A stretch of 64,000 nucleotides of DNA, taken from IMG/VR virus record IMGVR_UViG_3300034082_003579; one strand, written 5' to 3'. The translations under genes and the position numbers were made by a program. This DNA is from a virus (Duplodnaviria; Heunggongvirae; Uroviricota; Caudoviricetes). Below, in pieces: positions 23,126-39,636 of the stretch. Below the pieces are notes generated by a model. The model did not search any database, had not been told where the DNA came from, and worked only from the letters and a program-made list of their open reading frames with translations. Within the stretch, counting starts at the first letter, position 1. Each line of letters starts with the position of its first letter.

Positions 23126-24067
23126 CTATATGCGAGAAAATACCTGTGCCAAGGCTTGACCGCCACGCAATGATGTTAGTTCGCCAGGACGTTTAAATTC
23201 TAACCAAGTGCTGGCAGCATCGATGTGAAAACTTTGAATCAATTCAAATCCCAGCAGTTGGCAGTGTTCTACAATTGCCTGTTTAGGTGTATAGCATTTA
23301 AAACCTGATTCTGCCAGTTTAACAGCACCAGCTCGGTTGCAGTCATTGATAGTCAGGGCAATGACACCGCCTGGTTTGAGTTTGTGAAACAACTCGCGTA
23401 GATATGCATTTACTATTTCCAACGGTTTAAAGTTAAAAAAGTTATAGATCAAACAAAATGCAAACTGTCCAGACGGTAATTGTGTTAGGATGGGATCGTG
23501 CGCACTTTCTGTCACTGCATAGGTTCGCAATCGCCGTTGGTATTGATCATTAAATCTCAGCAATGCAGGATCCAATAACTCTTGATCTGTGTCAACAAGA
23601 TACAACGGATCACATCCCACTAAGAAATTAATCCAATCTTCTCGTCCGGGCCGAATGATCATGCCAGCGTGGTGCCAATCGCCATATCGTTGTAGTCTAG
23701 CAATGATTAATTCTTTTACTGTAGCAGTCAACGACTGTCGACGATCTAGGATATATTCATTGCTGTCATACTGCATCATTTGCCGATATAACTCGGTACT
23801 ATTTTCGTAGTAGACTGACTCGTGCTGCTGAATCAGCAGCTCAATTTGACTTTTAATTTGGTCAGCAGTCTGATCAAAATTGTCTAATTTTTTTAAAATG
23901 TCTTGGTAGTTGGCTTCCAGTTGTTCAGTTAAATGTGTAAATTGTATTTCATTTGATTGAACAGTGTACAACACCGGTGCCAGCTTGTCGTGAGCCAATG
24001 GCACAGTATCAAGGGGAATCATATCCTCTAGAAGACTTTTATAAGAAATTAACGAACTCAGTTTCAT
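23126..24067 (-). CDS. coiled-coil plus class I SAM methyltransferase-like protein
   Basis: GMIIRPG, LYLVD, FAFCLIYNFF, LKPGGVIAL. Confidence 0.6.
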   Translation of the reverse strand: MKLSSLISYKSLLEDMIPLDTVPLAHDKLAPVLYTVQSNEIQFTHLTEQLEANYQDILKKLDNFDQTADQIKSQIELLIQQHESVYYENSTELYRQMMQYDSNEYILDRRQSLTATVKELIIARLQRYGDWHHAGMIIRPGREDWINFLVGCDPLYLVDTDQELLDPALLRFNDQYQRRLRTYAVTESAHDPILTQLPSGQFAFCLIYNFFNFKPLEIVNAYLRELFHKLKPGGVIALTINDCNRAGAVKLAESGFKCYTPKQAIVEHCQLLGFELIQSFHIDAASTWLEFKRPGELTSLRGGQALAQVFSRI

Positions 24068-26733
24068 TAAAACTCAAACAATGATTGAAATGTGTTATCT
24101 GTGTTGGTTGCGCCAGCCAAATCCCAGTCCAGTACTCCCAACAAATTATCGACCTTGCCATCAACTACAGTAGATTCCATTTCGGCATCGTCAAATGGCA
24201 GTTCACAAAACCACCTGGGTAAATGTTGCTCGTCGGTGGGATAAGCAATACTAGTCCAACCTAAAGGATTGCTACGTAATTTGCAAACAATAACTTTCAT
24301 ACCATCCACCACTTGTAAAGAATAATTATCGCTGTTCATTCTGCGCAGATTATTCCAGTTGATAGCAGCGCGAACATGTCCTGGCATGTTGGTCTTGCCT
24401 TCTTTGATTTCTTTGTTGCCGTACATGGTCAAGTTGTTGACACGCTTTGGGCTGCCTTTTTCCCAAGCTGGTCGTTCCTTGAATTGATATTTGAACTCAC
24501 GTATTTTTTCAATAATAGGTTCTTTCTCCGATCCATTGAGAACATCGTTAAGAATGTCGCTAAGAAATTCTTGGATAATCTTAGGAGTATCTGACCGCTT
24601 GAGATCTAGGCCCATGGCTTTGACCTTGCCAGGCTTGCCGCCTACGTCATACCGCTTGCCGTCCTTGTCGTAGAACAACACAGCATATCGTTTCTTGGTG
24701 ATAAACAGACCCTTGATAGCAACAATTTCTCGACCACCTTGAATGATAGAACCCATGTCTCTGGGACAATGAAAAGCCTGTTCCATAAAGCCTGGGAAAC
24801 TGAGATTGACCTGTTCTGCAATGCTGTCATACAAGGCCACTGCAACATCCTTGTTCCATTCCATACGCCCTTGCGCAATTTCTTCTCGAAGTACAGGATA
24901 AGCAGAAAAGTAGCAAGAGTCTGTGTCACCGTATATAATGGCATTGCCCACATGATCGTACCGGCCTGTTATACACTCGTTGACATAGGCATCCATGTGC
25001 CGGGCAATGGTTCTACCTACCAAGGTTGTTGATTGTCCAATGCGTTTGTCAAAGAATCTACAACCTGGATTTAGAATAGCACCATACAAGCTATTCAAGT
25101 TGATTTTCTTGACCAACTGACGCTTGTCCCAGTATTCTTCTTGTTCATGATTGCCTTCGTCTTTTACTCGTGTCAATGTGGCCTGCATTTCTTTACGTTC
25201 GGCATACCATCGAGCCAACAAGCCGGGAATGATACCTTCTTTGTCATAGGTAAAGATAGTGCCGTTGGCACTGAGCACCCATGGTTTGTTGCTGTCAAAA
25301 ATCACATGCCAAAATTCTGCAGCTGACATGACATTGGTGGTACCATCTTCCCAGTCCACTGTCAATTCAAATCCGCGATTCTGTTCCATGACCGCTGTGT
25401 ATTCCAAAGTACCAAACAGTCCTTCCCATGCTGCAGCAAAACTCATGTTCCGGCCGATACGATCATTTATGTATTGGTCTGTGGCAATGGGTCTCAGTTG
25501 TCCCACAATAGTTTCCGGACCCATATTTAGGGCACGAATTGCTGACGGATACAAACTGTTGATGTCGATTGATCCAATATAGTCGTGCAAACCTTTTTTA
25601 GGATAAGCAACATAAGCGCCGGCTGCCTGCGTGTCCTGATTGTCACCGTACTGCTTGCGATTTGGGACCACCATGCCATGTGCATGTGCTTCGTTGATAA
25701 TGGCCTGTTCGGTCACAGCCACAGCACCAGTTGTGGTCGGCAACAGCACAGTATTTTCATGCGCAATTGAATTTGCCAAATCTAGAAACTTTAATTTTTT
25801 ATCAATCTTGTTGACAAGCACCACGTCTTGTCTGTTGTATTCAATGAAAGTTCGAAAATTTAGATTGTACAGCTGATCCAGTGTACCTTCGAACGCTGTT
25901 TTGCTACCCAGATCTTCGTATTCACCAATGGCATCCAAGCTGTAGCTGTGTCGTTCTTCATAGGTGTATTTGCGATACAACTGCATATAGTCCATGTGGA
26001 CTCGACCCACAAGATCAAATGTAAGACTTTCTTTTCCGAAGCGTTCAAATGTACGTGCCTTGGGCATTTGCCCCCACAGGCAAAATCTGCGTGTATCGTC
26101 CTTGCTCAGTATGCGAGTGACTCGATTCACTGTGTAAGGAATATCATAACCTTCGCTGTTCCATCCCGACAATACGTCTGCATCGTCAATTAGATGCAAG
26201 AATGAATCCAACAAGTCTGCTTCACGTTCAAACATAAATGTGTTGTCAAAGTCAGCAGCAATTTCTCTAGCAGTTTCCATGCTCATGCTCTTGGGAGGAA
26301 TAGCCAAGGTAACCAACTGGTCCAGCCAATCCAAGTAGACTGTGATGGCTGTGATGGGATTGAACGCTTCCTCAGTGCTGCTAAAGCCGCGCACTGGATC
26401 AAAGTCTGTTTCAATGTCAAAGAAAGCTGTGTGTAATTTTGGAGCATCTGCGCCTAGATAGTTTTCAGCCAAGCATCGAAATACAGGATTGATATCACTT
26501 TCATAGACAGTTTTACCCGAATGCATGCGCAGCTCTTTGCGAAACTCCTTGTTGTTTCTGCTGCTGAATCTAGCCACTGGTGTACCAAAAATACTGCGAA
26601 ACTTTCCTCTAGGATCGTCGTAGTAAAAAATGTATGTGGCTGGAAATTCTTGATATTTGCGAACGCCATTAATGCGTTCAACTATGTGAATTCGATCTTT
26701 GTCTCGATCAAACAGTGCGTCGACGTATGATAT
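24067..26733 (-). CDS. family B DNA polymerase (gp43-like), ATA start
   Basis: FFDIE (ExoI), WNSEGYD, YNRQD, DINSLYPS, KINLNSLYG, YGDTDS, KKRY. Frame open from ATA 26733 (I-S-Y-V-D-A-L-F) with AGGAG 7 nt upstream. Confidence 0.95.
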   Translation of the reverse strand: MSYVDALFDRDKDRIHIVERINGVRKYQEFPATYIFYYDDPRGKFRSIFGTPVARFSSRNNKEFRKELRMHSGKTVYESDINPVFRCLAENYLGADAPKLHTAFFDIETDFDPVRGFSSTEEAFNPITAITVYLDWLDQLVTLAIPPKSMSMETAREIAADFDNTFMFEREADLLDSFLHLIDDADVLSGWNSEGYDIPYTVNRVTRILSKDDTRRFCLWGQMPKARTFERFGKESLTFDLVGRVHMDYMQLYRKYTYEERHSYSLDAIGEYEDLGSKTAFEGTLDQLYNLNFRTFIEYNRQDVVLVNKIDKKLKFLDLANSIAHENTVLLPTTTGAVAVTEQAIINEAHAHGMVVPNRKQYGDNQDTQAAGAYVAYPKKGLHDYIGSIDINSLYPSAIRALNMGPETIVGQLRPIATDQYINDRIGRNMSFAAAWEGLFGTLEYTAVMEQNRGFELTVDWEDGTTNVMSAAEFWHVIFDSNKPWVLSANGTIFTYDKEGIIPGLLARWYAERKEMQATLTRVKDEGNHEQEEYWDKRQLVKKINLNSLYGAILNPGCRFFDKRIGQSTTLVGRTIARHMDAYVNECITGRYDHVGNAIIYGDTDSCYFSAYPVLREEIAQGRMEWNKDVAVALYDSIAEQVNLSFPGFMEQAFHCPRDMGSIIQGGREIVAIKGLFITKKRYAVLFYDKDGKRYDVGGKPGKVKAMGLDLKRSDTPKIIQEFLSDILNDVLNGSEKEPIIEKIREFKYQFKERPAWEKGSPKRVNNLTMYGNKEIKEGKTNMPGHVRAAINWNNLRRMNSDNYSLQVVDGMKVIVCKLRSNPLGWTSIAYPTDEQHLPRWFCELPFDDAEMESTVVDGKVDNLLGVLDWDLAGATNTDNTFQSLFEF

Positions 26734-27521: not shown

Positions 27522-27713
27522 CTATTTTCCTGCGGCCTGTAATGCTGCGCCTTTGTTGAAACTGGGACTGCGACTATTGGGCACTGTTCCCTTGCGTTTA
27601 CTCCAAGCATAACCTGCACGATGCCCAGAACAATCTTTAGTGCATTGGCTTCCTAAGAAATCAAGCTCGTTAACTTTTTTCCTATGTTTTCTAACAAATT
27701 CTGTTGCTCTCAT
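27522..27713 (-). CDS. small probable head-internal protein
   Basis: MRATEFV N-terminus, VNE site, CTKDCSGH motif. Confidence 0.7.
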   Translation of the reverse strand: MRATEFVRKHRKKVNELDFLGSQCTKDCSGHRAGYAWSKRKGTVPNSRSPSFNKGAALQAAGK

Positions 27714-27937
27714 CTTGCGCCTTTAAACCATAGCTGAAACCAAGCTTCGGTTCCCGGCTTGATATTTTGTTGGCGTTGTATTGCACCGCGGTTGGTGCTG
27801 TCAATGTTGGGCAGACTCATACGTTCAGCTTCACGTGCTGCTAAATTGTTGTATATGGGATCATCTGGAGGCATTATACAATCAGGAGCCGGAGAATGAT
27901 TTAAATCAACAGTTGAAAAATTTATGCGGTCAATCAT
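27710..27937 (-). CDS. small hypothetical protein
   Basis: 75 aa, ATGA coupling, NIKPGTEAWFQLWF end. Confidence 0.7.
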   Translation of the reverse strand: MIDRINFSTVDLNHSPAPDCIMPPDDPIYNNLAAREAERMSLPNIDSTNRGAIQRQQNIKPGTEAWFQLWFKGAR

Positions 27938-27938
27938 G

Positions 27939-28346
27939 TTAATCCTTTATAGGTCCACCTTCAACCCAAGCGTCGCAAGTGCGCTTGGCCGCACACTTAA
28001 ATTTTAAAAACTTGCAATAGCCCAGTGTACCAGCATCAATGGTACTGGCAGGATCTGATCCAGGTTCGCTGCCAATGCCTTTGGCAATGCACGACAGCAT
28101 GTCGTCGGTTTCGTCAAATGCAGCACAGTTACCGCACAAGGCTGACTTGGCATCGTCGGGGTTGTCCATGTTCCATTCTTCGGCCTTTGCAGCCCAAAAT
28201 TCTTCATTAGGTGCATTGGGATCTAAGGGACCGTAGCCATATTCATCTATGGCCTTTTGACGATTCTCAAGATTCAGCTTGATGCTTTGTGTGGCTGGAG
28301 GACATCCTTTCTCAATTGCTTCGAACAAATTTAATAGGTCTCTCAT
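27939..28346 (-). CDS. Cys-rich probable head-internal protein
   Basis: MRDLLNLFE N-terminus; CGNC...YC...C...TCDAW. Confidence 0.75.
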   Translation of the reverse strand: MRDLLNLFEAIEKGCPPATQSIKLNLENRQKAIDEYGYGPLDPNAPNEEFWAAKAEEWNMDNPDDAKSALCGNCAAFDETDDMLSCIAKGIGSEPGSDPASTIDAGTLGYCKFLKFKCAAKRTCDAWVEGGPIKD

Positions 28347-28348
28347 AA

Positions 28349-28420
28349 TTACACCGGTGAGTAAGGGTTACGCTTCCAGTCGCTATCTTGAGGATGTTCA
28401 GGATACACTGGATAGTCCAT
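28349..28420 (-). CDS. 23-aa micro-ORF MDYPVYPEHPQDSDWKRNPYSPV
   Basis: Not in ORF track. TAATG-coupled to the upstream stop; ends 2 nt before the next ATG. Confidence 0.55.
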   Translation of the reverse strand: MDYPVYPEHPQDSDWKRNPYSPV

Positions 28421-28647
28421 TATCTACAGACCCTGACATTGCGATTCACACGATATTGTGGATCCCAACGCTGCACCCAATAACAACGAGGTGGAGGTGG
28501 CGGAGGTGGTCGATAATACACAGGAGGAGGAATGTACACTGGGCGAGGTTGTACATAAACTGGCTGTGGTTGTATATAATAGGGATCTGTTACTACACAA
28601 CCTGTTAGGGCTGTGGCTGCTGCCAAAATGAGTATGATTCGTTTCAT
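28420..28647 (-). CDS. Pro-rich lipoprotein
   Basis: Signal peptide with lipobox LTG-C, QPxPVY repeats, poly-Pro; AAGGA SD. Confidence 0.75.
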   Translation of the reverse strand: MKRIILILAAATALTGCVVTDPYYIQPQPVYVQPRPVYIPPPVYYRPPPPPPPRCYWVQRWDPQYRVNRNVRVCR

Positions 28648-28668
28648 CAGTTTATCCTTAGATTTCCC

Positions 28669-28697
28669 AGTGTAGCATCAATTTAGGTTGTGGTCAA
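28669..28697 (-). promoter_or_regulatory. sigma70-type promoter for the lipoprotein
   Basis: TTGACC-17-TACACT. Confidence 0.6.
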
Positions 28698-28703
28698 GTT
28701 GCA

Positions 28704-30317
28704 TTATGCCTCATTTACATAGTCAGCATTTTTAGTTTTTGCACGACGGTGTGCGCAATACATTTCGCAGGCCATTACAGCTTCATCTAAGTTCTTAAAT
28801 TTACTAGCTGCGGGTTTATTCTTGATTGAGATACGGAATCCATCATCTTCGTTTCCGTGAATTGAGATTTCGTGCCCGTCGTCTGTGGTCACAGTTTTAA
28901 CTGGTGGACCCATTTGATCACCAGCAGGTTTGGCTGCTAACTTGTTAATAAGGTCGGGATCTTTACGAATCTCCTGGCCGATATCGCTCAAGTAATCGCC
29001 TAACCGGGCTTTTAGTTTAGTAATGATATCTTCTTTGGTTATAGATTCAACAGCAACCACAGGTTTACCTTGCGGTTTTGATCCACGGCCGGTACGACTT
29101 GCTCTTGCACCATCACCGCCACCACCGATGTGTTTGCTACCAAGACTTAGGCCTGGATTGCGTGGGCCGCGATTGGGTTTGACCTGTGTAATTTTTCCGC
29201 CACGTGCTAGGAAATCCGCTACGTCATCTTCTTTGACTGGTTTCTGGCCACGTGCAGCAATACGCTTGCCCAAGGCTGCTAACTGTTCTTTTGACCACTT
29301 CTCGCCTTTATGGCGTTCGGCCATCTTGGCCAGTGCAGCTTGTACAGCAGCGGTATCCATTTCATTACGCTCGGCTTCTGCTACACTTTCGTTAGGCACA
29401 CAGTTATTAACACGAACTCCGCCTTTGACTTTGGTTTTTGGAGTACCGATGTGTTTGCCTTTCCAGCACTTGGGATCTAGACGTTGTTTAACTGCTTCGG
29501 CTTCGTCCACTGATCGGGGTTTCTTACCTGCTTTCTTCATGGCAATAGCAATGGCGGCCTGCTGTGCTGAACTACTGGCTTCTGCAACACCTTGCTCTCT
29601 GATTTTTAATTTGCTGGTCAGTTCTGAAGAACTGCCACCAAACATACTACCAAAAGCATCACGGGATTGTTGTTTAGTATCCGCTTTTTGTTGTTTTGCT
29701 ACTGCTTTTTTACCAGTGATGCCTTTGAGCATCTTGTCAAATTTGGGGTCACCAGTTGCTTCCGCCACACCTTGCTCGGCAATACCATCATCTCTAGTAG
29801 CACCTTCTCCATCAGCGTCAAATGCTACCATTTCTATTTGGGGCCATACACGTGCCGGTGCGTACATAACGCCTGACGTTTCATCATGATCAATTACATC
29901 ACCAAACCGCTTCATTACAGCCGTGTACGCTGCTTCTGTGTTGACAGAAAAACCAACTGTGTCAGTATCGTCGACTCCGGCACGGCCTTCGTCATAATGA
30001 CGTGGTTGTGATTCGGCTTCGGCATATCCATCGTCCCATTGCTGGGCTTCTTTACTACCTGCTGGATAAGGATTTGATTCATTATGGCGAAAACCAGCAC
30101 GCCATCCTTTTTCCCAAGGATCGTTGCGGTCGGGCCCTATACTTTTCTTACCTGGCTCTGCACTTTCGTCAGCACCAACCATGTAACCTGCAAACGGATG
30201 CTTGGGATCAGTCTTGGCACCCAGCACGCTGATGTGCCGGGCCTTGGCCTGCGCTGGCAATTGAGGCACTGAACGTTGCTGTGCGTTTAAGCCTTCAACT
30301 AAGTTCTTTATTCTCAT
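28704..30317 (-). CDS. modular head-internal polyprotein
   Basis: Start ATG 30317 (MRIKNLVE); at least 10 (L/I/V)xE sites including two EQGVAEA linkers. Confidence 0.7.
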   Translation of the reverse strand: MRIKNLVEGLNAQQRSVPQLPAQAKARHISVLGAKTDPKHPFAGYMVGADESAEPGKKSIGPDRNDPWEKGWRAGFRHNESNPYPAGSKEAQQWDDGYAEAESQPRHYDEGRAGVDDTDTVGFSVNTEAAYTAVMKRFGDVIDHDETSGVMYAPARVWPQIEMVAFDADGEGATRDDGIAEQGVAEATGDPKFDKMLKGITGKKAVAKQQKADTKQQSRDAFGSMFGGSSSELTSKLKIREQGVAEASSSAQQAAIAIAMKKAGKKPRSVDEAEAVKQRLDPKCWKGKHIGTPKTKVKGGVRVNNCVPNESVAEAERNEMDTAAVQAALAKMAERHKGEKWSKEQLAALGKRIAARGQKPVKEDDVADFLARGGKITQVKPNRGPRNPGLSLGSKHIGGGGDGARASRTGRGSKPQGKPVVAVESITKEDIITKLKARLGDYLSDIGQEIRKDPDLINKLAAKPAGDQMGPPVKTVTTDDGHEISIHGNEDDGFRISIKNKPAASKFKNLDEAVMACEMYCAHRRAKTKNADYVNEA

Positions 30318-30757
30318 GCTCTGTTGTCCTTTAAGAAGGCTTTTAACATCCATTGATGTTTGCCATGTGCATCCAAGCGTTCGGCAACAAAGTTGGCAAT
30401 GCCCTGTTGATTTTCTTGTTCAGCAGAACCGAAACATTGATTCAGCAAATCCAACATGGTTTGATTGTCAGCCAATAACTCTTCGATCATGAGTCGAGCA
30501 CGTGGCACTTTGATCTGTCCCGGAATCAAGCTCAGGTTACCAAAGCGTTCAAAACTACCCGGAGCGTATTCGTCTAAGGTACGGATGTATTCGGCTGTGC
30601 GATCAATGGCGTTATCGTTGATTTCTGCGTAGAAGTCGCCAAAGAACTCGTGCAGTTGTGCAAAGTCTGGGCCCTCTACGTTCCAATGAAAGAACTGTGC
30701 TTTCACTGCCATGGCATATTCTGTTGCCAATAAAGTTTTTAAATCATCTGCGAGCAT
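30314..30757 (-). CDS. dps: Dps/ferritin-like protein
   Basis: FHWNVEGPDFAQLHEFF, DRTAEYIR, HGKHQWML. Confidence 0.9.
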   Translation of the reverse strand: MLADDLKTLLATEYAMAVKAQFFHWNVEGPDFAQLHEFFGDFYAEINDNAIDRTAEYIRTLDEYAPGSFERFGNLSLIPGQIKVPRARLMIEELLADNQTMLDLLNQCFGSAEQENQQGIANFVAERLDAHGKHQWMLKAFLKDNRA

Positions 30758-30914
30758 TTTGTTTGTTCCGTATTAAACTGTTTTTATATTTACCAGGTTT
30801 GCGGGTTTGTGTGCGAGTAATTACTGCCCCCATTGGCTGTGCTATTGCAGCAACACTGCCGCTGCTAGTAGCACCAGCAGATGCGTTTTCTTTTATAAAT
30901 TCACGTGCTCGCAT
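30744..30914 (-). CDS. 56-aa probable head-internal protein
   Basis: Not in ORF track. MRAREFIKE-NASAGATSSG...; fills the gap between neighbours. Confidence 0.7.
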   Translation of the reverse strand: MRAREFIKENASAGATSSGSVAAIAQPMGAVITRTQTRKPGKYKNSLIRNKQNARR

Positions 30915-31197
30915 GTGTTATCTCCAGCGTTTCGTCGTCAATCCAACTACCCGGCCCAGTTTCAATTTTGCGATTTCTCACTTTGAATTTGGTCTTGACA
31001 GGCCCAGCAGATTTGACTCGTATTTTATATTGCCCTGGTGGCGCTTGAATCTGCAGCATTTCTACCAGAAACACGTCGTGCCAAATATAGGTACGCTCTG
31101 TAAATAATTCGTCGTTGACAAATACTCGATAGATCGGAGGAGTTCCTTCCCAGTCGCAGAATATATCAAATGTTACCTTTACAAATTCGGTGTGCAT
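30901..31197 (-). CDS. hypothetical protein (late)
   Basis: 98 aa; CTAAATA 4 nt upstream of ATG. Confidence 0.75.
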   Translation of the reverse strand: MHTEFVKVTFDIFCDWEGTPPIYRVFVNDELFTERTYIWHDVFLVEMLQIQAPPGQYKIRVKSAGPVKTKFKVRNRKIETGPGSWIDDETLEITHAST

Positions 31198-31272
31198 TTG
31201 ATATTTAGCAAAAATGTATCTATATATTTGTACCTGATCACACTTATATAAGTATTCAGCAAAGGATACATT

Positions 31273-32148
31273 ATGGCTGAACGCATACTTATAGATCGAC
31301 TAGAATTTTATATTACAAATGTCTGTAACTTGACTTGCAGCGGGTGCAATCGTTACAATAATTATAAATTTTCTGGTCATTGGCGCTGGGCAGATGCTGA
31401 ACCTATACTGACACAGTGGGCAGAAAAGATTGAAATAAGACATCCGGTAATACTGGGAGGTGAACCCTTGTTGAATCCTGACATTGTAGATTGGATTACT
31501 GGCCTTAGACGCTTGTGGCCCCGTCTCAGTGGAGTACAGGTTCAAAGCAACGGTACTAGATTGGATCTAGTACCTGGGCTGTACGATGCAATAAATCATG
31601 ACAACTGGATTGGGATTAGTCTACACTCTGTAGAACACAAAGAAACGTTGTTTACTCGTATACGCAATTTTTTAAAACATCCAATAGCAGAAACAGAAAA
31701 TCCCAACCATCCTGTCGGTAGCCGATATCAATTTATTGATGCCGATCAAAAATATATTCATGTTTGGGTCAACAATATTTTTTCTCAAAGCAACATTATT
31801 GAACAGGCCAACGGACGTTTTGGATTGTACAATAGCAATCCAGAAATAGCACATGAAGTCTGTGCTTATCGCAAATTTAAAAACTATCACATGATTCGGG
31901 GGCGTATATACAAGTGTGGACCTGTAGCACTGATGCCAGAATTCGACGACCAGTATCAGTTCGATTTATCAGATGAAGATCGCGTAATCATGAGAGGCTA
32001 TCAAGGTTTAGGAGTAGACGAGTTTGATCAGCGTGGTCAAGAGTTTATGGACAACATTGATTCTGTGGTCCCACAATGTAAATTTTGTCCCGAAAGTTAT
32101 GATTACAAACCCATTGTTTTTACCAATCTAAAACCTAACAAGATTTAG
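31273..32148 (+). CDS. radical SAM protein
   Basis: CNLTCSGC, LGGEPLL, QSNG, YKCG...CKFC; AAGGA SD. Confidence 0.85.
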   Translation: MAERILIDRLEFYITNVCNLTCSGCNRYNNYKFSGHWRWADAEPILTQWAEKIEIRHPVILGGEPLLNPDIVDWITGLRRLWPRLSGVQVQSNGTRLDLVPGLYDAINHDNWIGISLHSVEHKETLFTRIRNFLKHPIAETENPNHPVGSRYQFIDADQKYIHVWVNNIFSQSNIIEQANGRFGLYNSNPEIAHEVCAYRKFKNYHMIRGRIYKCGPVALMPEFDDQYQFDLSDEDRVIMRGYQGLGVDEFDQRGQEFMDNIDSVVPQCKFCPESYDYKPIVFTNLKPNKI

Positions 32149-32174
32149 GTATTTGTTGATAGCCTAACAATTGT

Positions 32175-32384
32175 TTATCGTAGTTTGATTTCTCGAGGTT
32201 GCCCCATCAGTATGCCGGGTACATTGTATTGTACTTGCACTATCTTGCGAGCCATTTGTGGATTTAAAGCCATTACAGTGGTAAAGGTATTGGTCATGCC
32301 GCCGCCGAGGATTGGAATCTTAATACGTATCTCATAAGTCTTGAGCTTGGATTTCTTGGGTTGGGCAATTTCTATTAGTCGCAT
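32175..32384 (-). CDS. small basic probable head-internal protein
   Basis: MRLIE N-terminus; GTAAATA 5 nt upstream. Confidence 0.7.
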   Translation of the reverse strand: MRLIEIAQPKKSKLKTYEIRIKIPILGGGMTNTFTTVMALNPQMARKIVQVQYNVPGILMGQPREIKLR

Positions 32385-32388
32385 GGTG

Positions 32389-32946
32389 TTATTTACCAGA
32401 CTTCATGTTGGCACACCAATGGTACATCTTTGCACGTTCTCCGGATGCTGCTTTGGCTCGTTTGCGTAGACTAGTAACTGATCCGTTGCAGCTGGCACCG
32501 GCACGTTTGACACGCCCAGGACGGCTTTTACCTTTAACTTTGCCATCTGCAAAGTTTTCATTCAACGAAGTGTTTAAGAACTGTTCGCCTGCGCCTGTGA
32601 CATACCAATAACCATCATCATCTACAATGTAGCCATTGCTGCTTAAACTGTCTAACACGTTATCGTAAGCAGTAGTTCGCGATTCATCTTCTTGAAAATC
32701 CATTCCTAATTGTGCTGCTGTATAAATGGCATGCAGCACTAGAATTTTACCTAGTCCTTGACTACGAAATTCTGGGTCAATCTCTGCAATGCTACGGCCG
32801 GTGGCAGCATTGTATTGATACACTCCAACTGGTTCCCCATTCACTGTCATTTCTGTAGCAAAATTATTGCGACTTTTTTTAACTCGAAAGGCAATCTTTT
32901 TATTGCCATCTGCAAAGTTTTCGATTATGAATTCGCTAGCTCTCAT
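32389..32946 (-). CDS. head-internal protein with GNAT-like domain
   Basis: MRASEFIIE; IDPEFRSQGLGKIL acetyl-CoA motif A; basic C-terminal module with two Cys. Confidence 0.7.
   Translation of the reverse strand: MRASEFIIENFADGNKKIAFRVKKSRNNFATEMTVNGEPVGVYQYNAATGRSIAEIDPEFRSQGLGKILVLHAIYTAAQLGMDFQEDESRTTAYDNVLDSLSSNGYIVDDDGYWYVTGAGEQFLNTSLNENFADGKVKGKSRPGRVKRAGASCNGSVTSLRKRAKAASGERAKMYHWCANMKSGK
32540..32922. repeat. 20-nt perfect direct repeat pair (32540-32559, 32903-32922)
   Basis: ttgccatctgcaaagttttc twice, encoding ENFADG and flanking the GNAT domain. Confidence 0.9.
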
Positions 32947-32949
32947 GTG

Positions 32950-35900
32950 TTATCTCATTACCGGATATACTTCCAGGTTCCCATCAAATCCGGTACGTTG
33001 GGCCCACTCACGTGCTACTCGGTTGGCATCACTTTGACTGTTACCAACACCGCTGAATCTATAAACTTCTCGGTTCAGTCCATCCACTACTTTCCATTCA
33101 CCGGAGAACTCACCACCAGTCTGTTGTGCTGCCGGAAAATTCTGAGGTTCTGTCTGGATCGGTGGAAAGTTCTGTGCTATGTCAAGTGGCACTTCAGGGA
33201 TAGAATTGGACCGTGGCTCAGTAAATGCTGGACGAGGTTCGCCTATTGTGGCCCTAATAGGTGCAGCATTTAGTATCTCGGGTGGTACACCCGATATATG
33301 ATCCAACCACACAGTACGACGCTCTATACCCTGAGCAGTGGTCCATTCACGTGCTGCTTCTATCGCTGCCCTGTTGTTTGGAGCCGAAAATCTGTGCAAC
33401 ACTGCTCCTCTGCCTTCGGCGCCTTCTCTTTGTCGCAACACATAGTTGCCACGAGGATCATCTGCCACTGGAGCATTGAGTTGATCTGTCTGTGGAGTCT
33501 GTGTAGGAGGTGCAGTAGGTGCTGTGGCTAAAATCTCTGCTGGTACATTTTCGACGTGAGCCAGATGCACGGATGATTTCTCAATCCCACGTGCCTCTAT
33601 CCATTGTTTTGCTTGTTCTATGGCAGCACTGGTACCAGTGGCACTAAATCTATGTAGTACAGAACCTTGGGGTTTTCCTTCAGAATCTTTACTACGTATC
33701 ACATAATTGCCGTCGGGATCGTAATCTGTTGAAACTTTTCCGCTGGCTTTTTGTCGTGCCACGTCACGACTGTACTGTATCTTTTTAATAAAGCCTTTGA
33801 GTTCTGACTTGGGCAACTCACCTGCTACAAAACGACTGAATACGGCAATGGCATCATTGTCAAGGCCGGGCACAACTTCTGTACGTTTTGTACCGGTCCG
33901 AGGATCCGTAATCTCTTGTGTTTTGACATCAGTCAGCATCTTGTACAGCTTCTTGGCATATTCTGGCTTGTCAGCTGCAGGATTCATAGCAATGTCCATG
34001 GCACGAGCATAACGCATCAAGGTATTTTGGATTTTATCCATGTCTTCGAAATAGTTGCTGCCGCCAGCTGATCGGAATTCGATGTATTTGCTCTTGGGAT
34101 TGATACTGGTGTATTTGCCAAAGCCTGAAGGACTGGCTAAAGCACGTGAAGCAAACTGATCTAAATGCTTGCGCATGGCAGACATAACAGTCTCGGCATC
34201 AACCTTGCCTTTCTTGTCACGAATCTTGCTGATGGCACTCTTGGCGTAAGTGTTGGCTTCACGTCCAAACTGCTTCAACACATACTCGTCGCCCAAGAAC
34301 AAGGCCAGTTTTGTGTAATCCAGCATGTTTCCTTCGTGCTCGGGCATGCTGACACTCATGTGGAAACCAGTAGAGCTATTGGCATAAGCACCATTTTCTT
34401 CAGCCCACTCAAAAAACTTGGGCAGGATTTCCAGAGTTTTTGCTAGTGGCATAGGTGGACTCACAATCTCCACTGGCATGTTGGCATCATCGTCGGCATC
34501 TAAGCTGCCGTCGGGTTCAAAAATCCAAGTACTTGTGTCACGAGTAGCACCGTGATAACCTGTGCTGACAGTGGTTGTAACATCTAACTTATCTGCCAAG
34601 TCATCAGCTAACCGTTGTGCTGCGTCTTCGTTGAATCCACCTTCGGAGCTGCCACCCGTCATGGTCATGTGTGGCCATGTGACGTCAAAGTTGTAGGCTA
34701 TATCACTCATGCTGCGCCAACCTCGATCACGCAACCAGTCGCTTTCGGACCGGTCCCAGTTTTCTCTAAATTCGTCCAAGGCACTTTCAAAGTCGCTGTT
34801 CTGTTCTGCTATGGCCATCTCTACACGTTCATCCAGCTGTCGTTCGACTTCTTGTTCGGCACCCACATATTCTTCTACCAAGTCAGCATCAGCGGCAGTA
34901 CCAGTGCCTTTAACCCGTCGTTCCATGGCTGCCAGTATCTCTTTCACACGGTCTTCTCTGTATTCATCATCTAACGCACGTTCAATAAGGTCTTCTTCGT
35001 CCCAGTCATTGTCTTGAATCCATTCACGTACAGCAACAGGTGCATCAAACTCATCATACAGGGTCTGGTCATACCATTCCATATAGTCTTGCTCTAATGC
35101 CGCTTTTGTTTGGCGTGTCATGCCCTCAGCAAAATCGCCTGAGTCAAAAAAGTCTTCAATGTTCTCAAGGCTGTAGGCACGGGGATCATAGCTGTAGTCA
35201 GCTTCCCATTCGCCTTCTTCTTCGTCGCCGCCGATGCCAGTAAACACTAACTCAGCTTCAAAGCCGGCTTTCATGCCTGCAGCGGCTTCACTGTTGGCAA
35301 AGGACCGCAGGGCACTGGGACTCATGGCCACTTCTTCCAGCTCTTGTTCTTGTTCACTGACCAAAGGAAATCCTAAACCTTCTTTGACTAATTGTAACTT
35401 GCGTGTGAGTTCTTCAACAAGGCCATTGGTCCGGGCAGTAGGTGGTGTACCGGCAGCAGTAGTCTTCCAACCCAGCTTGGCAGCTTGACGTTTGGGTTCA
35501 CCAGGTTTGATATCAACTGTGACAGCCATGCTGTAGCGTGGATCGCGAGCTTCTTTATCGTTGACAGGAATATAACCCGAAGCTTCTGCTACAACCTGTT
35601 GGCCATAATGTTCTCCGCGTATGGCTCGGTCAACATAATCATCACTGACCGGTTGTTCTAAATCTACCTGAACTCCCAATTGTTTTGCCAATTTTAATAT
35701 TTGAGATCGTGTTGAACGATCTTTGTATATTGCAGCCAAACTGCACTGACCTTCGCTGTATTCACTTTGATCTTGCAACAATGGTATTACACCTGGAATC
35801 TGTTGTAGTCCAAGATGCATTTGTTTTTGTAACTCAGGATCTGTAGCGTCAGGAAATTCAGGGTTGGCACATACAAATTCTATTTCTTTGTAGTCACTTT

Positions 35901-37353
35901 TGCCCGAGCCCTCTGCCAAGGCTTTCTTGTCAAACATGCCAGGATTCTGTTCACCATAACTACGCATCAACACACCAGCTTTAGCATTGGCTTCATTTTC
36001 CCATTCACTGCCAGTGTCGCCAGCATGATACGGCATGGGTTCAATTTCGTCTTGACGGCGATGCACTAACTCATGTGCTAGTGTACGCATGATATCCATG
36101 GGATGACGATTGGCCACAGATAATACTAATGTTTTAATCTCAGGGATATAACGCCCAAATGTAGCATTACGCTTTGACCATTCTGGATCTCGCTTTAATT
36201 GAATCTTAGGAGGATTCTCTATGCCTAATTTCTCACTGCAAAATGCAGCAAACTTTTCTAACTGTGCTTGTATATTGTCAGCACCTTCGTTTACTTTAAA
36301 TTCTGTTTCGCGATCCAGTTTCTTGCCAGCTGGGTCAATATCGTGTGTCTTTAGTCCTAGTCTTTCTAACTTCTTGATATACTTGTGTTCTAAAGGTTCG
36401 CTGCCAAAATTTATGATAGTCTGTGGTGCGCCTTGACCGTACATCTTGGGATTAGCATGATCCAGGTCACTGATGTCTTGACCCAGCTTGTACCAGTCGT
36501 ATGTGTCCGACACATCGACTAGCACAGTGCCTGCTGGCATTGTCGGCTTGGACTCAGGACCAGGCGGCTCTTCATTGGGATGCCAGTCTTCCATAGGATT
36601 AAGGTCTTTGAAACCAAACTTGAATGGTTTCTTTTCCTGGGTTTCGTCTACACTGAGTTCTCGATCTTTGGCAGCTAATCGTGCTGCCCGCAATTGATCT
36701 AGGGTGCCATTGCTGCGCAGTATTTTAAAGGCCAAATTCTCAGGCCCAAACTCACCTGTTTGATCTAGACCAGCCTGTCTGAATTCGCGTACTTTTTTAC
36801 TGAGTGTTTCTAGATGTCGGGTATCGCCGGATTTGATAGCAGCTTCGATACGTTGGCCTAGGTCTTCGTATTTGCTCTTTACTGAAATGTCGTCTACTTC
36901 AGGTTTACGTCTCTTGGGTACACTAATCCATTCGTTGTTGAGAACCGAATAAATGCCTTGACTCTTTGGATCTTCGTTGGCGTTTTGTACATAAAGCTCT
37001 ACATCATATCCGCCAATTTTGAAATTGTGTTGATCATTGTACTGATATTTTTTGGCATCAAACAGTTCGCGATAAACTTCGCTGGCATCTGCCCGGGGCA
37101 AGTCTGCCACTAGATGTAAATCAATGTCGCTGTGATCTGTGTAGGTGTAAGCTGCGTTACTGCCACTAATAGTGATGTCTTTGACTTCTAAGTCTAGACC
37201 CAGAAACTCTTTGAAGTCTTCGGCAATGGCCAATAGTTTTTGGCGAACCTCGGGCAGGAGGTGCTCGTCTGATCCCCAAATACGTGGGTTAAGAGAGTTG
37301 TGAAATTTAATAGCATCGCTAAGGCGATAATCTTGTAGCTCTTTGATGTCCAT
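32950..37353 (-). CDS. 1467-aa polyprotein: pol-beta NTase, zincin, amidoligase, 3 C-terminal repeats
   Basis: SGSN...SDIDLH; TLAHELVH...ENEANA; GFEAEL...EPDGSL...EIVSP...STGFH...YIEFR; domains separated by VDE/VNE/LAE/VAE/LEE sites. Confidence 0.8.
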   Translation of the reverse strand: MDIKELQDYRLSDAIKFHNSLNPRIWGSDEHLLPEVRQKLLAIAEDFKEFLGLDLEVKDITISGSNAAYTYTDHSDIDLHLVADLPRADASEVYRELFDAKKYQYNDQHNFKIGGYDVELYVQNANEDPKSQGIYSVLNNEWISVPKRRKPEVDDISVKSKYEDLGQRIEAAIKSGDTRHLETLSKKVREFRQAGLDQTGEFGPENLAFKILRSNGTLDQLRAARLAAKDRELSVDETQEKKPFKFGFKDLNPMEDWHPNEEPPGPESKPTMPAGTVLVDVSDTYDWYKLGQDISDLDHANPKMYGQGAPQTIINFGSEPLEHKYIKKLERLGLKTHDIDPAGKKLDRETEFKVNEGADNIQAQLEKFAAFCSEKLGIENPPKIQLKRDPEWSKRNATFGRYIPEIKTLVLSVANRHPMDIMRTLAHELVHRRQDEIEPMPYHAGDTGSEWENEANAKAGVLMRSYGEQNPGMFDKKALAEGSGKSDYKEIEFVCANPEFPDATDPELQKQMHLGLQQIPGVIPLLQDQSEYSEGQCSLAAIYKDRSTRSQILKLAKQLGVQVDLEQPVSDDYVDRAIRGEHYGQQVVAEASGYIPVNDKEARDPRYSMAVTVDIKPGEPKRQAAKLGWKTTAAGTPPTARTNGLVEELTRKLQLVKEGLGFPLVSEQEQELEEVAMSPSALRSFANSEAAAGMKAGFEAELVFTGIGGDEEEGEWEADYSYDPRAYSLENIEDFFDSGDFAEGMTRQTKAALEQDYMEWYDQTLYDEFDAPVAVREWIQDNDWDEEDLIERALDDEYREDRVKEILAAMERRVKGTGTAADADLVEEYVGAEQEVERQLDERVEMAIAEQNSDFESALDEFRENWDRSESDWLRDRGWRSMSDIAYNFDVTWPHMTMTGGSSEGGFNEDAAQRLADDLADKLDVTTTVSTGYHGATRDTSTWIFEPDGSLDADDDANMPVEIVSPPMPLAKTLEILPKFFEWAEENGAYANSSTGFHMSVSMPEHEGNMLDYTKLALFLGDEYVLKQFGREANTYAKSAISKIRDKKGKVDAETVMSAMRKHLDQFASRALASPSGFGKYTSINPKSKYIEFRSAGGSNYFEDMDKIQNTLMRYARAMDIAMNPAADKPEYAKKLYKMLTDVKTQEITDPRTGTKRTEVVPGLDNDAIAVFSRFVAGELPKSELKGFIKKIQYSRDVARQKASGKVSTDYDPDGNYVIRSKDSEGKPQGSVLHRFSATGTSAAIEQAKQWIEARGIEKSSVHLAHVENVPAEILATAPTAPPTQTPQTDQLNAPVADDPRGNYVLRQREGAEGRGAVLHRFSAPNNRAAIEAAREWTTAQGIERRTVWLDHISGVPPEILNAAPIRATIGEPRPAFTEPRSNSIPEVPLDIAQNFPPIQTEPQNFPAAQQTGGEFSGEWKVVDGLNREVYRFSGVGNSQSDANRVAREWAQRTGFDGNLEVYPVMR

Positions 37354-37934
37354 TATGTATTTATTCGAAAAGGTTTTGCAGTGGTAGATGGACCACGTCG
37401 CGAGTTAAGTTCAACCAAATTCCAATCCCAGTGCTGCCAATGTACAAACTGTGTCCCTATACACTTGTCACTGGGTTTGACTTCTGTTGCTTGAATACCT
37501 GCAATCAGCGCAGCAGCCTGTTGAGGATTTAGCGCATAGGCATGTGCACCTTTGCTCCAAGTTCCTGTGGTGCCTGTTTTAGTACCGCGATCTTGGTGAA
37601 ATTTTTGTATACCTAGTGATAAATCTAACTGGGGCATAGGGCCTCTTACAACAGCATCAGTTTCCAATACAACAATGGGTTCATTTAACTCTATACATCT
37701 GTGCCATAATCGCCAATGGCTAAAAAAACAGCCTTGGGCTCCAGGACGTTGATATATTTTGGTATTGGGATTAAGATAAAGCCCTGCACGTTTATAGTCC
37801 GGGGCTGTTACAGCAGTGCCTAATGTGGCTGGGAATGGCTCTGCTGACCATCCCCATTTTTGACAACTGGAGATGCAGTCTTGTAATAATTTTTTACTGT
37901 GATCAGTATCTAAAGTTATTATATAAGACCGCAT
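37353..37934 (-). CDS. GT25-family glycosyltransferase
   Basis: YIITL, GCFFSHWRLW, IVVLETDA. Confidence 0.75.
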   Translation of the reverse strand: MRSYIITLDTDHSKKLLQDCISSCQKWGWSAEPFPATLGTAVTAPDYKRAGLYLNPNTKIYQRPGAQGCFFSHWRLWHRCIELNEPIVVLETDAVVRGPMPQLDLSLGIQKFHQDRGTKTGTTGTWSKGAHAYALNPQQAAALIAGIQATEVKPSDKCIGTQFVHWQHWDWNLVELNSRRGPSTTAKPFRINT

Positions 37935-37942
37935 CAATTGGC

Positions 37943-38758
37943 TTATTGCGCAGGGCTGTCTTCGTTAGATGCCAACACAACCGGCTCAGGCATCACAGCT
38001 GGTTCTGCAGCTGGTATTTTGTCTACCACTGGTTTAGCTTGCTGCAAGGCTTCGAACAGTTTTTCTTGTGCTGCAAAATCAAACACATAAGATCCCACGT
38101 GTCGTAACAATACTCTGGTATCTACCCAAATTTTGCCACCAAGATCACGCCAATTTTCGCAGAATGTCCAGTCTTCGCTGTAATATCGATTTTCGCGAAC
38201 TGCAGTGTCATAGTAAGTGCGCAAGTGTTGATCTAACTCTTTGGGCAAGCCAATGTCATTGTTAAAAGGCTTAACTGCAGGATGTGCATTGAGTTTTTCA
38301 AACACATGACGTTTGACCAACATGAACCCTGTACCGGTCTTTGAAACTTCTTGTAAATTGTCCGGTCCAGTTTCGGCTCCTTCGAATCCATTTACTACCC
38401 ATTTAATGGGCAGAGTCTTCATGGGATATAGGCCGCCGATCACATCAACATCACGATTTAACAAGGCCAATAAATGCCAAGGTTCCCAGCCAATGTCAGC
38501 ATCAACAAACATCAAGTGAGTTGAATCAGGATTATTGAGGAATTTGGCTACCAGAGTATTTCTGGCTCTGCTAATCAAACTTTCATTTGTCATGGTTTCT
38601 ATAGTCCAATCAATGCCTAGTTGACGGCAAGTGTTGGCCCATTTGATATAGCTCATGAAAGTTTGTTCTGTCAACATGCCAGAGTAGCATGGCATACAAA
38701 TATGAACTCGGGTAGTGCGTAAGTAATCTACATTTACTGTGATTTGCTGGTCAGACAT
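37943..38758 (-). CDS. GT-A glycosyltransferase-like protein
   Basis: ICMPCY, SLISRARN, FVDAD, GTGFMLV, SEDWTFC. Confidence 0.7.
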   Translation of the reverse strand: MSDQQITVNVDYLRTTRVHICMPCYSGMLTEQTFMSYIKWANTCRQLGIDWTIETMTNESLISRARNTLVAKFLNNPDSTHLMFVDADIGWEPWHLLALLNRDVDVIGGLYPMKTLPIKWVVNGFEGAETGPDNLQEVSKTGTGFMLVKRHVFEKLNAHPAVKPFNNDIGLPKELDQHLRTYYDTAVRENRYYSEDWTFCENWRDLGGKIWVDTRVLLRHVGSYVFDFAAQEKLFEALQQAKPVVDKIPAAEPAVMPEPVVLASNEDSPAQ

Positions 38759-38796
38759 AACATCCTCTTAAATTATGTGAGTATTTAATGGAGATG

Positions 38797-39636
38797 TTAG
38801 TAGCTGATAGATTTCTCTTCTATGTAATCAGATTCCAATGATACCGGATCTTTTGCTGTTGCAGGATCAGATCCTGCCAACTGGTTCAATATATCACGAA
38901 TTTCGTTGTTGACCAACGCTTGTGCTTGAGAAAAATCTTTGTGTTTGATGCTGGACACCAGGCTTGACAAGTGTGTGGTCAAGTCTGTCACCAAGGAACG
39001 CTCAGAATCCGTACTGAAAATACTGTCGGGTCCAATTGCTTCCACTGTGGTTTTGATTTCTAATACACTGTCAAAAATTTCAATCAGCTTGTTGGCAGCA
39101 GATGGATTGCCGGCAGCCGCAGGATAAATGGTCTTGATCAAGTTGCTTTTTTGTGACGGTGTCATTTCAGGCCATTTGGCACGAATTTCAGTGGCACTGG
39201 TCATTCCAGGTCCAAACTGTGCCACAGGCAAGTAGGCCATGTATCCGTGCTGACTCATGGGTGCAAGTCCGGTACGTTTGTATGGCTGCAGATAAGCAGG
39301 TTCGCCATTCTTTTTAACGCCGCCGGCTCGTGGCTGTTGATCAGTATCCTTTTCACTGCGAACAAAGATCAGTTGAGTGTCAGCAGGATCGTAAATCTGT
39401 GTGATTTCTTCGGCTTTAAACGGGCTCTTGACTTGAATAAATCTGTTGGCAGGTACACCAGCAGCTTGTGCCAGCATTTTTTTAAGATTAAACGGAAAAG
39501 GTCTAGAAGCAGTATCGGCCGTAGCAGCAACAAAAACATCCGCCGACGGAAATGCTGCTTCAGCAGCATGATACAATGCAGTATGTCCTGCATGCCAGGG
39601 ATGGAATCCGCCGGGCATAATAACCAATTTTTTCAT
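38797..39636 (-). CDS. HIGH-family nucleotidyltransferase-like protein, probably virion-associated
   Basis: PGGFHPWHAGH, SATEIR; TVE/IEE sites in tail; late promoter upstream. Confidence 0.7.
   Translation of the reverse strand: MKKLVIMPGGFHPWHAGHTALYHAAEAAFPSADVFVAATADTASRPFPFNLKKMLAQAAGVPANRFIQVKSPFKAEEITQIYDPADTQLIFVRSEKDTDQQPRAGGVKKNGEPAYLQPYKRTGLAPMSQHGYMAYLPVAQFGPGMTSATEIRAKWPEMTPSQKSNLIKTIYPAAAGNPSAANKLIEIFDSVLEIKTTVEAIGPDSIFSTDSERSLVTDLTTHLSSLVSSIKHKDFSQAQALVNNEIRDILNQLAGSDPATAKDPVSLESDYIEEKSISY

Follow-up and report, generated by a model that had tools for sequence, protein, structure and literature searches.

Introduction

The T4 proteins IPI, IPII, IPIII and Alt carry a capsid-targeting sequence and are processed by gp21 (Mullaney & Black 1996; PMC9026906, PMC3012670). 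In IPII and IPIII this sequence is MKTYQEFIAE (PMC8442874), and the more than 30 internal-protein variants of the T-even phages share the capsid-targeting sequence only (PMC2839356, PMC3012670). Here we describe a block of genes (positions 27522–39636) in a 64,000-nucleotide stretch of viral DNA, IMG/VR record IMGVR_UViG_3300034082_003579, which as a whole is referred to below as the window. Six genes in this block begin with a short shared leader, or tag, and its long proteins are chains of modules joined at motifs of the type cut by prohead proteases. We lean towards the view that the tag is this lineage's version of the T4 capsid-targeting sequence. The principle is the known T4 one of a short tag, gp21 clipping and variable injected proteins, here much expanded.

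The window genes and the T4 internal proteins are alike in having a short leader with an aromatic residue, an aliphatic residue, any residue and Glu (EFIxE), a cut (predicted for the window) after that Glu, an S77 protease in the lineage, small basic proteins and enzymes as products, and variable loci (PMC2839356). They differ in that the leader has 10 residues in T4 and 9 here, and in that long multi-module chains with internal joints occur here, in a distant jumbo clade whose DNA polymerase is ~50% identical to those of its nearest cultured relatives and whose system is known from sequence alone. T4 gp61.1 is also similar to one window protein: it begins MKTFKEFIKE, compared with MRAREFIKE, and in both proteins (54 and 56 amino acids (aa), respectively) the leader is followed by a mimic of the capsid-protein site and a charged tail. 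The window protein differs in tracking the capsid sequence without the 11-residue T4 insertion, and it has other neighbors.

Three further systems are related. Polyvalent proteins (Iyer, Burroughs, Anand, de Souza and Aravind 2017, PMC5512222), which were proposed to be delivered with the DNA by phages and conjugative elements, likewise combine unrelated effector domains in one polypeptide, including zincin-like, ParB-like, NUDIX and nucleotidyltransferase (NTase)-type domains. In contrast to these, the modules here are separated by a prohead-protease-type motif and headed by a targeting leader, and PMC5512222 mentions neither a capsid-targeting sequence nor an amidoligase. Agrobacterium phage Atu_ph07, a T4-like jumbo phage, has an S77 protease, the capsid site LME↓NATAG (↓, known or predicted cut) and an 8-residue leader ending in L-x-E on 13 genes; it differs in the leader itself, M[RK]WxQL[TN]E, and in its cargo, which is mostly one paralogous YRGM family. 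The ejection or inner-body proteins of phiKZ, 201phi2-1 and SPN3US are also cut after Glu by a gp21-related protease (gp175/gp245-type) and ejected (PMC10052503, PMC7411985), but these phages are of another lineage, with a small P3 residue in the site logo, long propeptides and no short shared N-terminal tag. Given the T-even variants and the polyvalent injected proteins already described, the claim of the preliminary description of this DNA that the block goes beyond T4 was overstated. Our literature search found no paper on the tag family, on protease-type joints inside polyproteins, or on a tag that copies a capsid-protein site.

Results

A family of N-terminal tags

The window originates from an uncultured freshwater T4-like jumbo phage. 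Its DNA polymerase (24067–26577) was 50% identical to that of Sinorhizobium phage Phosso and 48% identical to that of Atu_ph07, with Rak2-like and T4-like phages as more distant kin. Searches of the window at the nucleotide level and of its 185-aa tag protein found no match in cultured phages. A 48-mer of the window had no exact copy in IMG/VR and was recovered from a single 1-kb metagenome contig. The IMG/VR contig G001 (159.5 kb) was syntenic with window positions 166–46418 at 70–89% nucleotide identity and served as a stand-in for the remainder of the genome. Two other relatives used were G003 (95% complete, 412 genes) and G002 (343 kb, with tag genes). At least 120 contigs of IMG/VR had the tag pattern, and the tag or the linkers described below were present in thousands of proteins from metagenomes.

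Window genes are nearly all on the minus strand, as are all the N-termini that had been quoted as alike in the preliminary description, each of which was found. Three genes have a strict MRAxEF tag (leader consensus M-R-A-x-E-F-[IV]-x-E) and three a looser one, with tag lengths of 5–9 residues (pI, isoelectric point; ORF, open reading frame):

27522..27713, minus strand: 63-aa basic protein, pI 10.5, strict tag MRATEFVRK, nearest candidate site VNE at aa 14–16
27939..28346, minus strand: 135-aa acidic Cys-rich protein, looser tag MRDLLNLFE↓A (MRDLLNLLE↓A in G001)
28704..30317, minus strand: 537-aa modular protein, looser tag MRIKNLVE↓G, inside ORF 28704–30353 with an internal start at 30317
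30744..30914, minus strand: 56-aa protein, strict tag and capsid-site mimic MRAREFIKE↓NASAGATSSGS..., basic tail, pI 11.9
32175..32384, minus strand: 69-aa basic protein, short looser tag MRLIE↓IAQ
32389..32946, minus strand: 185-aa protein with strict tag MRASEFIIE↓NFADG, acidic GNAT-like domain, linker LNE↓NFADG and basic 56-aa tail of pI 10.8

Within the window the strict tag was confined to this block, heading 3 of 13 block genes compared with 3 of 658 control genes (Fisher test, 1e-4). The looser form M[RK]x1-5[LIVFM]xE was found in 4 of 13 and 19 of 658, respectively (6e-4). G003, with its 412 genes, had only ~5 tags, and these were scattered. The full T4-type pattern of an aromatic P4, an aliphatic P3 and a P1 Glu was present in MRAREFIKE and MRASEFIIE; MRDLLNLFE, MRIKNLVE and MRLIE fit it loosely, and MRATEF is without the P1 Glu. 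The element EFIxE is shared with the T4 targeting sequence (PMC8442874) and with T4 gp61.1. About 80 homologues of the 537-aa protein start M[KR]IKNL, which confirmed its internal start.

The block had originally been delimited as 27522–39636, and in that interval only 6–7 of ~16 genes bear a tag, with none from 37353 to 39636. The real feature thus spans 27522–37353, and the leaderless remainder falls away. MDIKEL, the start of ORF 32950–37353, had been listed among the tags; it is the conserved start of a nucleotidyltransferase domain (M[ND]IxEL[DE]S in 46 homologues) and was therefore not counted as a clear tag. Based on these comparisons, the leader of the six genes is on balance best read as a capsid-targeting sequence of the T4 type.

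Two observations on tag genes elsewhere may be recorded here. Tandem pairs of tag genes, encoding proteins of ~120–135 aa with starts 365–416 nucleotides (nt) apart, occurred in contigs L140, L141, L157, L166, L170, L184, L185 and L212 and in G002 (306977–307719), and represent a widespread duplicated family of small tag proteins. The cultured Synechococcus phage DSL-LC02, a freshwater T4-like cyanophage, has a 57-aa ORF starting MKTFQDFLEE (L133, 2331–2504, plus strand), which is nearly the T4 capsid-targeting sequence. A homologue of the window's nucleotidyltransferase follows immediately downstream and the DNA polymerase gene is close by; the location matches that in the window.

The tags resemble the maturation site of the capsid protein

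The head genes of G001 were in the order known from T4: portal, 67-like, 68-like, a Peptidase_S77 protease (96 bits), scaffold and major capsid protein. The S77 protease was found in G001 and eight other tag-bearing contigs. Of five further large contigs (259–525 kb, four of them at least 98% complete) that had been selected solely for the DNA pattern of the tag, all five had it. G002, which is without S77, was considered as a counter-example and rejected, as it is collinear with G003 and the contig breaks off immediately ahead of the head module.

The capsid proteins of G001, G003, G011, G012 and G013 contain the sequence ...TRKYLKE↓NASAGST.SGNIATLNRV, with the variants YLSE↓SATAG in G004 and LLAE↓SS[AV]G in G007 and G010. 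A MAFFT alignment placed the Glu of this site on that of T4 gp23 FLTE↓AEIGG, residue 65 (E65↓A66), and the gp23 propeptide is 65 residues long (PMC9026906). The protease of the lineage itself starts MALYLRE↓NLTF; similarly, LIE stands close to the N-terminus of T4 gp21 (PMC9026906). The tag ends FIKE↓NASAG (30744–30914) and FIIE↓NFADG (185-aa protein) resemble both the capsid site YLKE↓NASAG and this protease start. The pattern [FY][LIV]xE[NT][AFLS][ATS] occurred only 10 times in the 176,000 residues of three proteomes: in two capsid proteins, one protease, four tags, one G003 homologue of the polyprotein and two others.

Similarity to the capsid protein was most extensive in the 56-aa ORF. 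Used as a query, it found small orthologues and also the capsid-protein N-termini of G013, G011 and G004 (E 4e-5 to 5e-4), to which its residues 3–35 were 42–45% identical. T4 gene 61.1, with the sequence MKTFKEFIKE↓DMVAGDSGG...TTSGAV, has the same build on T4's own capsid protein. ORF 30744–30914 has the size (50–70 aa), the leader and the similarity to its lineage's capsid maturation region that mark a gp61.1-like protein and, judged by these features, is the counterpart of the unstudied T4 gp61.1. It could serve as a protease decoy or as an anchor inside the capsid.

Module joints in the long proteins

The longest protein of the block adjoins the tag genes:

32950..37353, minus strand: 1467-aa polyvalent protein

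It begins with a Pol-beta-type nucleotidyltransferase (aa 1–~245, GS...DIDLH, phrog_36119), an annotation that its homologues also carry. Behind an unknown module come a small zincin, with HELVH at aa 427, then a ferredoxin-like and a small basic module, and finally an Amidoligase_2 domain with an acidic insert (33.6 bits against a cut-off of 22) and three C-terminal repeats. Foldseek matched the zincin to abylysin, jannalysin and selecase (minigluzincins), IrrE and Wss1; no match to the 1467-aa protein came from a sequence search of the PDB. Like the polyvalent proteins, it thus has several unrelated effector-type domains, including a zincin-like metallopeptidase.

An AlphaFold model, covering aa 235–700 with a mean predicted local distance difference test (pLDDT) score of 73, contained three domains (pLDDT 90–98) separated by segments of 7–15 residues with pLDDT <50. 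Four joints were compared with these segments and with homologues spanning each joint, in which [LIVFM]xE was sought within a 12-residue window (background 16–21%):

36286..36294, minus strand: VNE(356)↓G before the zincin, in the pLDDT <50 linker aa 343–357, motif in 70% of spanning homologues
35911..35919, minus strand: LAE(481)↓G, in the 7-residue pLDDT <50 linker aa 478–484, motif in 84% of spanning homologues
35584..35592, minus strand: VAE(590)↓A, in the 7-residue pLDDT <50 linker aa 587–593, motif in 62% of spanning homologues
35380..35388, minus strand: VKE(658)↓G, 2 residues before the pLDDT <50 segment aa 660–674, motif in 81% of 16 spanning homologues

Homology breakpoints were found at the same places. 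Residues ~255, 356, 481 and 590 of the 1467-aa protein, ~274 of the 537-aa protein and 128 of the 185-aa protein are exactly where stand-alone tag proteins of other contigs start. Tag proteins abut joint 356, P0064 and P0145 abut joint 481, and BLAST high-scoring segment pairs break in a cluster at aa 580–590 and end at 635–660. The module joints therefore fall where homology breaks off and where linkers between domains are predicted. The proposal that the long proteins are modules joined at VDE, VNE, VAE and similar motifs was thus borne out as to the joints, which the breakpoints and linkers show to be real, and as to the enrichment of the motif at domain boundaries; the bare motif is too short to bear that proposal by itself.

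The 537-aa protein has candidate joints of the same kind:

29760–29768, 29580–29588 and 29376–29384: VAE↓A
29496–29504: VDEAE↓A

Stand-alone tag proteins abut it at aa 274–277. It also contains an RMF-like motif (30018–30122), for which homologues match PF04957 at ~25 bits, below the cut-off, and a motif like the RNA polymerase-binding part of SutA (29172–29231; 27.1 bits, cut-off 29.3). As both fall below their Pfam cut-offs, we treat them as leads only. Many homologues of the 537-aa protein have the RMF-like motif, the SutA-like motif or both.

Longer linker sequences were more specific than the bare motif. EN[FLS]A[DE]G occurred 12 times in tag proteins and not once in 166,724 control residues, and GV[AT]E[GA] was ~14-fold enriched. 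In three homologue sets the commonest hexamers at joints were GVAE↓NF, SLNE↓NF, GVAE↓G and NVGE↓NF. The N-terminal tags keep an aromatic P4 (Phe), P3 and P1, and the internal linkers keep P3 and P1 only. Mutagenesis of the T4 IPIII leader tied residues 4 and 7 to targeting and residues 8 and 10 to processing (PMC9026906), so this difference is what would be expected of signals for targeting and cutting compared with signals for cutting alone.

Enzyme domains and small modules of the tag proteins

The GNAT-like domain of the 185-aa protein was borderline (E 6.6e-4) but clear in homologues. The basic tail of the same protein stands alone directly behind a tag in other contigs, and the one result of an Atlas search with this tail was its occurrence as small viral proteins too. 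Among the smallest proteins, the SPSFNKGA C-terminal module of 27522–27713 recurs at the ends of other tag proteins, the G001 counterpart of this gene has an extra module between tag and tail, and the module of the 32175–32384 protein also ends other tag proteins. Domain and profile searches with the 27939–28346 protein found no family match.

In other contigs, tags and modules were combined with NUDIX, GH19+LysM, ParB_N, HTH, NMNAT-like, dCMP deaminase, NT5C, HicA, M48 and U49 domains. By sequence comparison, the domains of the tag proteins (GNAT, GH19+LysM, NTase, ParB_N, NUDIX and zincin) resemble known injected proteins, and the domains taken together match the repertoire of the polyvalent proteins (PMC5512222).

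Tag proteins in L028, L054, L059, L064, L068 and L078 have a low-complexity stretch, KKRKRKPRWAAYGPG.YGGYGY, followed by a GH19 (chitinase/lysozyme-like) domain and LysM. These are candidate head-packaged cell-wall hydrolases.

Leader proteins in Atu_ph07 virions

Virion data were available for Atu_ph07, which has an S77 protease (gp204) and the capsid-protein site APLME↓NATAGATSSGNVAV. A scan of its 490 kb identified 13 genes starting M[RK]WxxLxE, namely the gp53–62 array, gp381, gp408 and gp482:

NC_042013 39484–49507, 290373–290885, 304780–305556 and 349666–350502: Atu_ph07 M[RK]WxxLxE genes

All 13 are listed as virion proteins identified by electrospray ionization tandem mass spectrometry (Attai et al. 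2018, PMC6102473 Table S5), in a table that we estimate to cover ~145 of 714 gene products. In the same table gel band 9 holds the largest share of the 87-kDa gp53 and is also the peak band of proteins of 20–22 kDa, and the 31.7-kDa gp482 peaks in band 12; both positions fit processing. Near its C-terminus gp53 has ITE↓TSSAGSTGAGNVAT, a mimic of the capsid-protein site. Attai et al. (2018) did not describe the leader. Most of the Atu_ph07 leader genes carry the YRGM motif and may be Alt-like.

Discussion

Proposed packaging and processing

We consider it fairly probable, from the sequence comparisons above, that a T4-type leader targets these proteins and that the prohead protease clips both the cargo and its joints. 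By analogy with T4, the cargo proteins are probably packed in the head and injected with the DNA. The leader would dock each protein into the scaffolding core of the prohead, and a gp21-type serine prohead protease would cut after the Glu of [FY/LIV]-x-E, as in the capsid-protein site. The same protease would cut the linkers E↓NFADG, GVAE↓A/G, VNE↓G and LAE↓G in the 185-, 537- and 1467-aa proteins, which would release small enzymes and basic peptides inside the head. Leaving the head together with the DNA, these pieces would then act as infection begins. The linker- and leader-coding DNA would double as a recombination joint for module swaps between phages. T4-type targeting with prohead-protease cleavage had been put forward in the preliminary description, and the S77 protease in relatives, the capsid-site match, the joints and the 13 of 13 leader proteins in Atu_ph07 virions lend it independent support; the docking, packaging, cleavage, ejection and host targets we infer for this phage. 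Among the cargo enzymes that had been named, a GNAT-like domain is found in a tagged protein, and NTase, zincin and amidoligase in the jointed one; the HIGH-type transferase is untagged.

A more far-reaching version, which we regard as tentative and rather doubtful, is that of a combinatorial cargo, predictable from sequence, across a large clade of uncultured T4-like jumbo phages of fresh water. In this version the nine-residue tag would have been copied from the capsid site and would load the head, and the linker cassettes (E↓NFADG, GVAE↓G) would be cut sites and recombination joints at once. Modules would be shuffled, from single genes to polyproteins of up to 1467 aa or more, and freed in the capsid, and the RMF- and SutA-like cargo would be injected modifiers of translation and transcription.

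Several observations weigh against packaging and cleavage. The block adjoins the DNA polymerase gene, outside the head module, and its context is not that of packaging or late genes seen with polyvalent proteins; the window itself holds no head genes, and the protease was read in relatives. Generic [LIV]xE was not in excess in tag proteins, where it occurred 10.1 times per 1000 aa compared with 13.1 in controls (z 0.9 against shuffles); the L/I-x-E enrichment expected of gp21 substrates was seen at the joints only. ORF 27522–27713 has no Glu at position 9, the 1467-aa protein does not start with a canonical tag, and 16–38% of homologues are without the motif at a given joint. For the 537-aa protein AlphaFold gave a poor model, mostly of low confidence (pLDDT 53), in which linker placement is not discriminating. 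The Atu_ph07 virions were purified with polyethylene glycol only, the Atu_ph07 tag differs in sequence from that of the window, and 10 of its 13 leader genes are paralogues.

NTAAATA was enriched 15–30-fold within 80 nt upstream of genes in the window and G001, but it precedes replication genes as well as head genes and does not tell late genes from early ones; some of its copies, moreover, are coding coincidences. The block was free of the T4 late promoter TATAAATA, which was not enriched either. As NTAAATA also precedes replication genes and TATAAATA is absent, the late timing that had been assigned to these ORFs is unproven. NTAAATA copies ~26–38 nt ahead of a start codon may represent a promoter element akin to the T4 late -10 box, and those at 12–13 nt are coding coincidences of the end of the upstream gene.

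Alternative explanations

The alternative that survives best is that the shared leader and linkers are mere recombination joints or remnants of paralogy, in proteins that act in the cell and are neither packaged nor cut. Repeats in the block bear directly on it:

32540..32559 and 32903–32922: 20-nt perfect direct repeat encoding ENFADG on both sides of the GNAT module
32917..32956 and 30885–30924: 40-nt repeat, 83% identical, covering the start codon, the tag and 11 upstream bases of two tag genes
29571..29597 and 29751–29777: 27-nt direct repeat, 81% identical, encoding the EQGVAEA linker twice

Because such repeats are perfect or near-perfect at linkers, recombination alone could keep the sequences alike, which is a further point against cleavage. 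In addition, the block is a variable region beside the DNA polymerase gene, in which the window and G001 differ by whole cassettes, and T-even internal-protein loci have likewise been described as recombining (PMC2839356, PMC3012670). Together, the repeats at leaders and linkers and the cassette differences indicated that this DNA is also a recombination substrate. Recombination alone nonetheless leaves unexplained why tags end in the capsid site and why the same site stands at the N-terminus of the protease, why Glu and an aliphatic P3 persist at joints whose DNA has diverged, and why Atu_ph07 virions contain proteins with analogous tags. The two processes can coexist; recombination is complementary to proteolysis, not exclusive of it. 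As the sole explanation we consider it unlikely.

We find it less likely again that the zincin metallopeptidase of the polyprotein itself, and not the prohead protease, cuts the joints, either before packaging or after injection. The HExxH module exists, with a fold like those of minigluzincins, IrrE and Wss1, and autoprocessing of this kind was proposed by Iyer et al. (PMC5512222). However, the 185-aa and 537-aa proteins have the same linkers and no zincin, a cut after Glu with an aliphatic P3 is the gp21 signature (PMC9026906), and the identical site is found in the capsid protein and the protease.

That the tag is the recognition sequence of the neighboring radical SAM enzyme (31273–32148), which would modify tagged proteins, is very improbable: the gene lies inside the block, and G001 and G003 have relatives of it close to tag genes, but homologues were found in only 4 of 80 loci centered on tag genes, none is present in the 343-kb G002 with its tag genes, and the G003 enzyme is flanked by IscU-/IscA-like genes, not by substrates.

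Other genes of the block

On one side the block is bordered by a ClpA-like gene and on the other by the dsbA-like and DNA polymerase genes. Its untagged genes were as follows:

28420–28647: lipoprotein gene
30314–30757, minus strand: ferritin/Dps-like gene (PF00210, E 1e-22), wedged between two tag genes
31273–32148, plus strand: radical SAM gene, the only plus-strand gene of the block
37353–37937: GT25 gene
37943–38758: glycosyltransferase gene
38797–39636, minus strand: HIGH-type (cytidylyltransferase-like) transferase, untagged here and in close relatives

Judged by their N-termini, a cargo status of both glycosyltransferases and of the radical SAM, Dps-like and lipoprotein genes is not supported. 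The Dps-like gene has start/stop overlaps with its neighbors, an arrangement kept in G001. The radical SAM orthologue of G003 (62231–63859), with its IscU-like and IscA-like neighbors, forms a small phage Fe-S assembly set. The HIGH-type transferase had been considered as cargo in this window and was rejected for want of a tag. Its distant homologues are multi-domain proteins with an 8-residue MxxxELFE-type leader (e.g., MLLRELFE, MYAHELYE); with distant homologues tagged and close ones untagged, this enzyme family appears to switch between the two forms.

Implications

Should the tag and linkers function as they do in T4, sequence alone could reveal which proteins are injected by an abundant uncultured clade of lake phages. 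This would supply a ready list of effectors of the first minute of infection: anti-defense enzymes, cell-wall hydrolases and possibly modifiers of the ribosome or RNA polymerase. It would also provide tags and cleavable linkers of natural origin with which foreign proteins could be loaded into large capsids. Finally, it would join T4 capsid targeting and gp21 processing with the polyvalent proteins, in that the head protease itself would dismantle the polyproteins.

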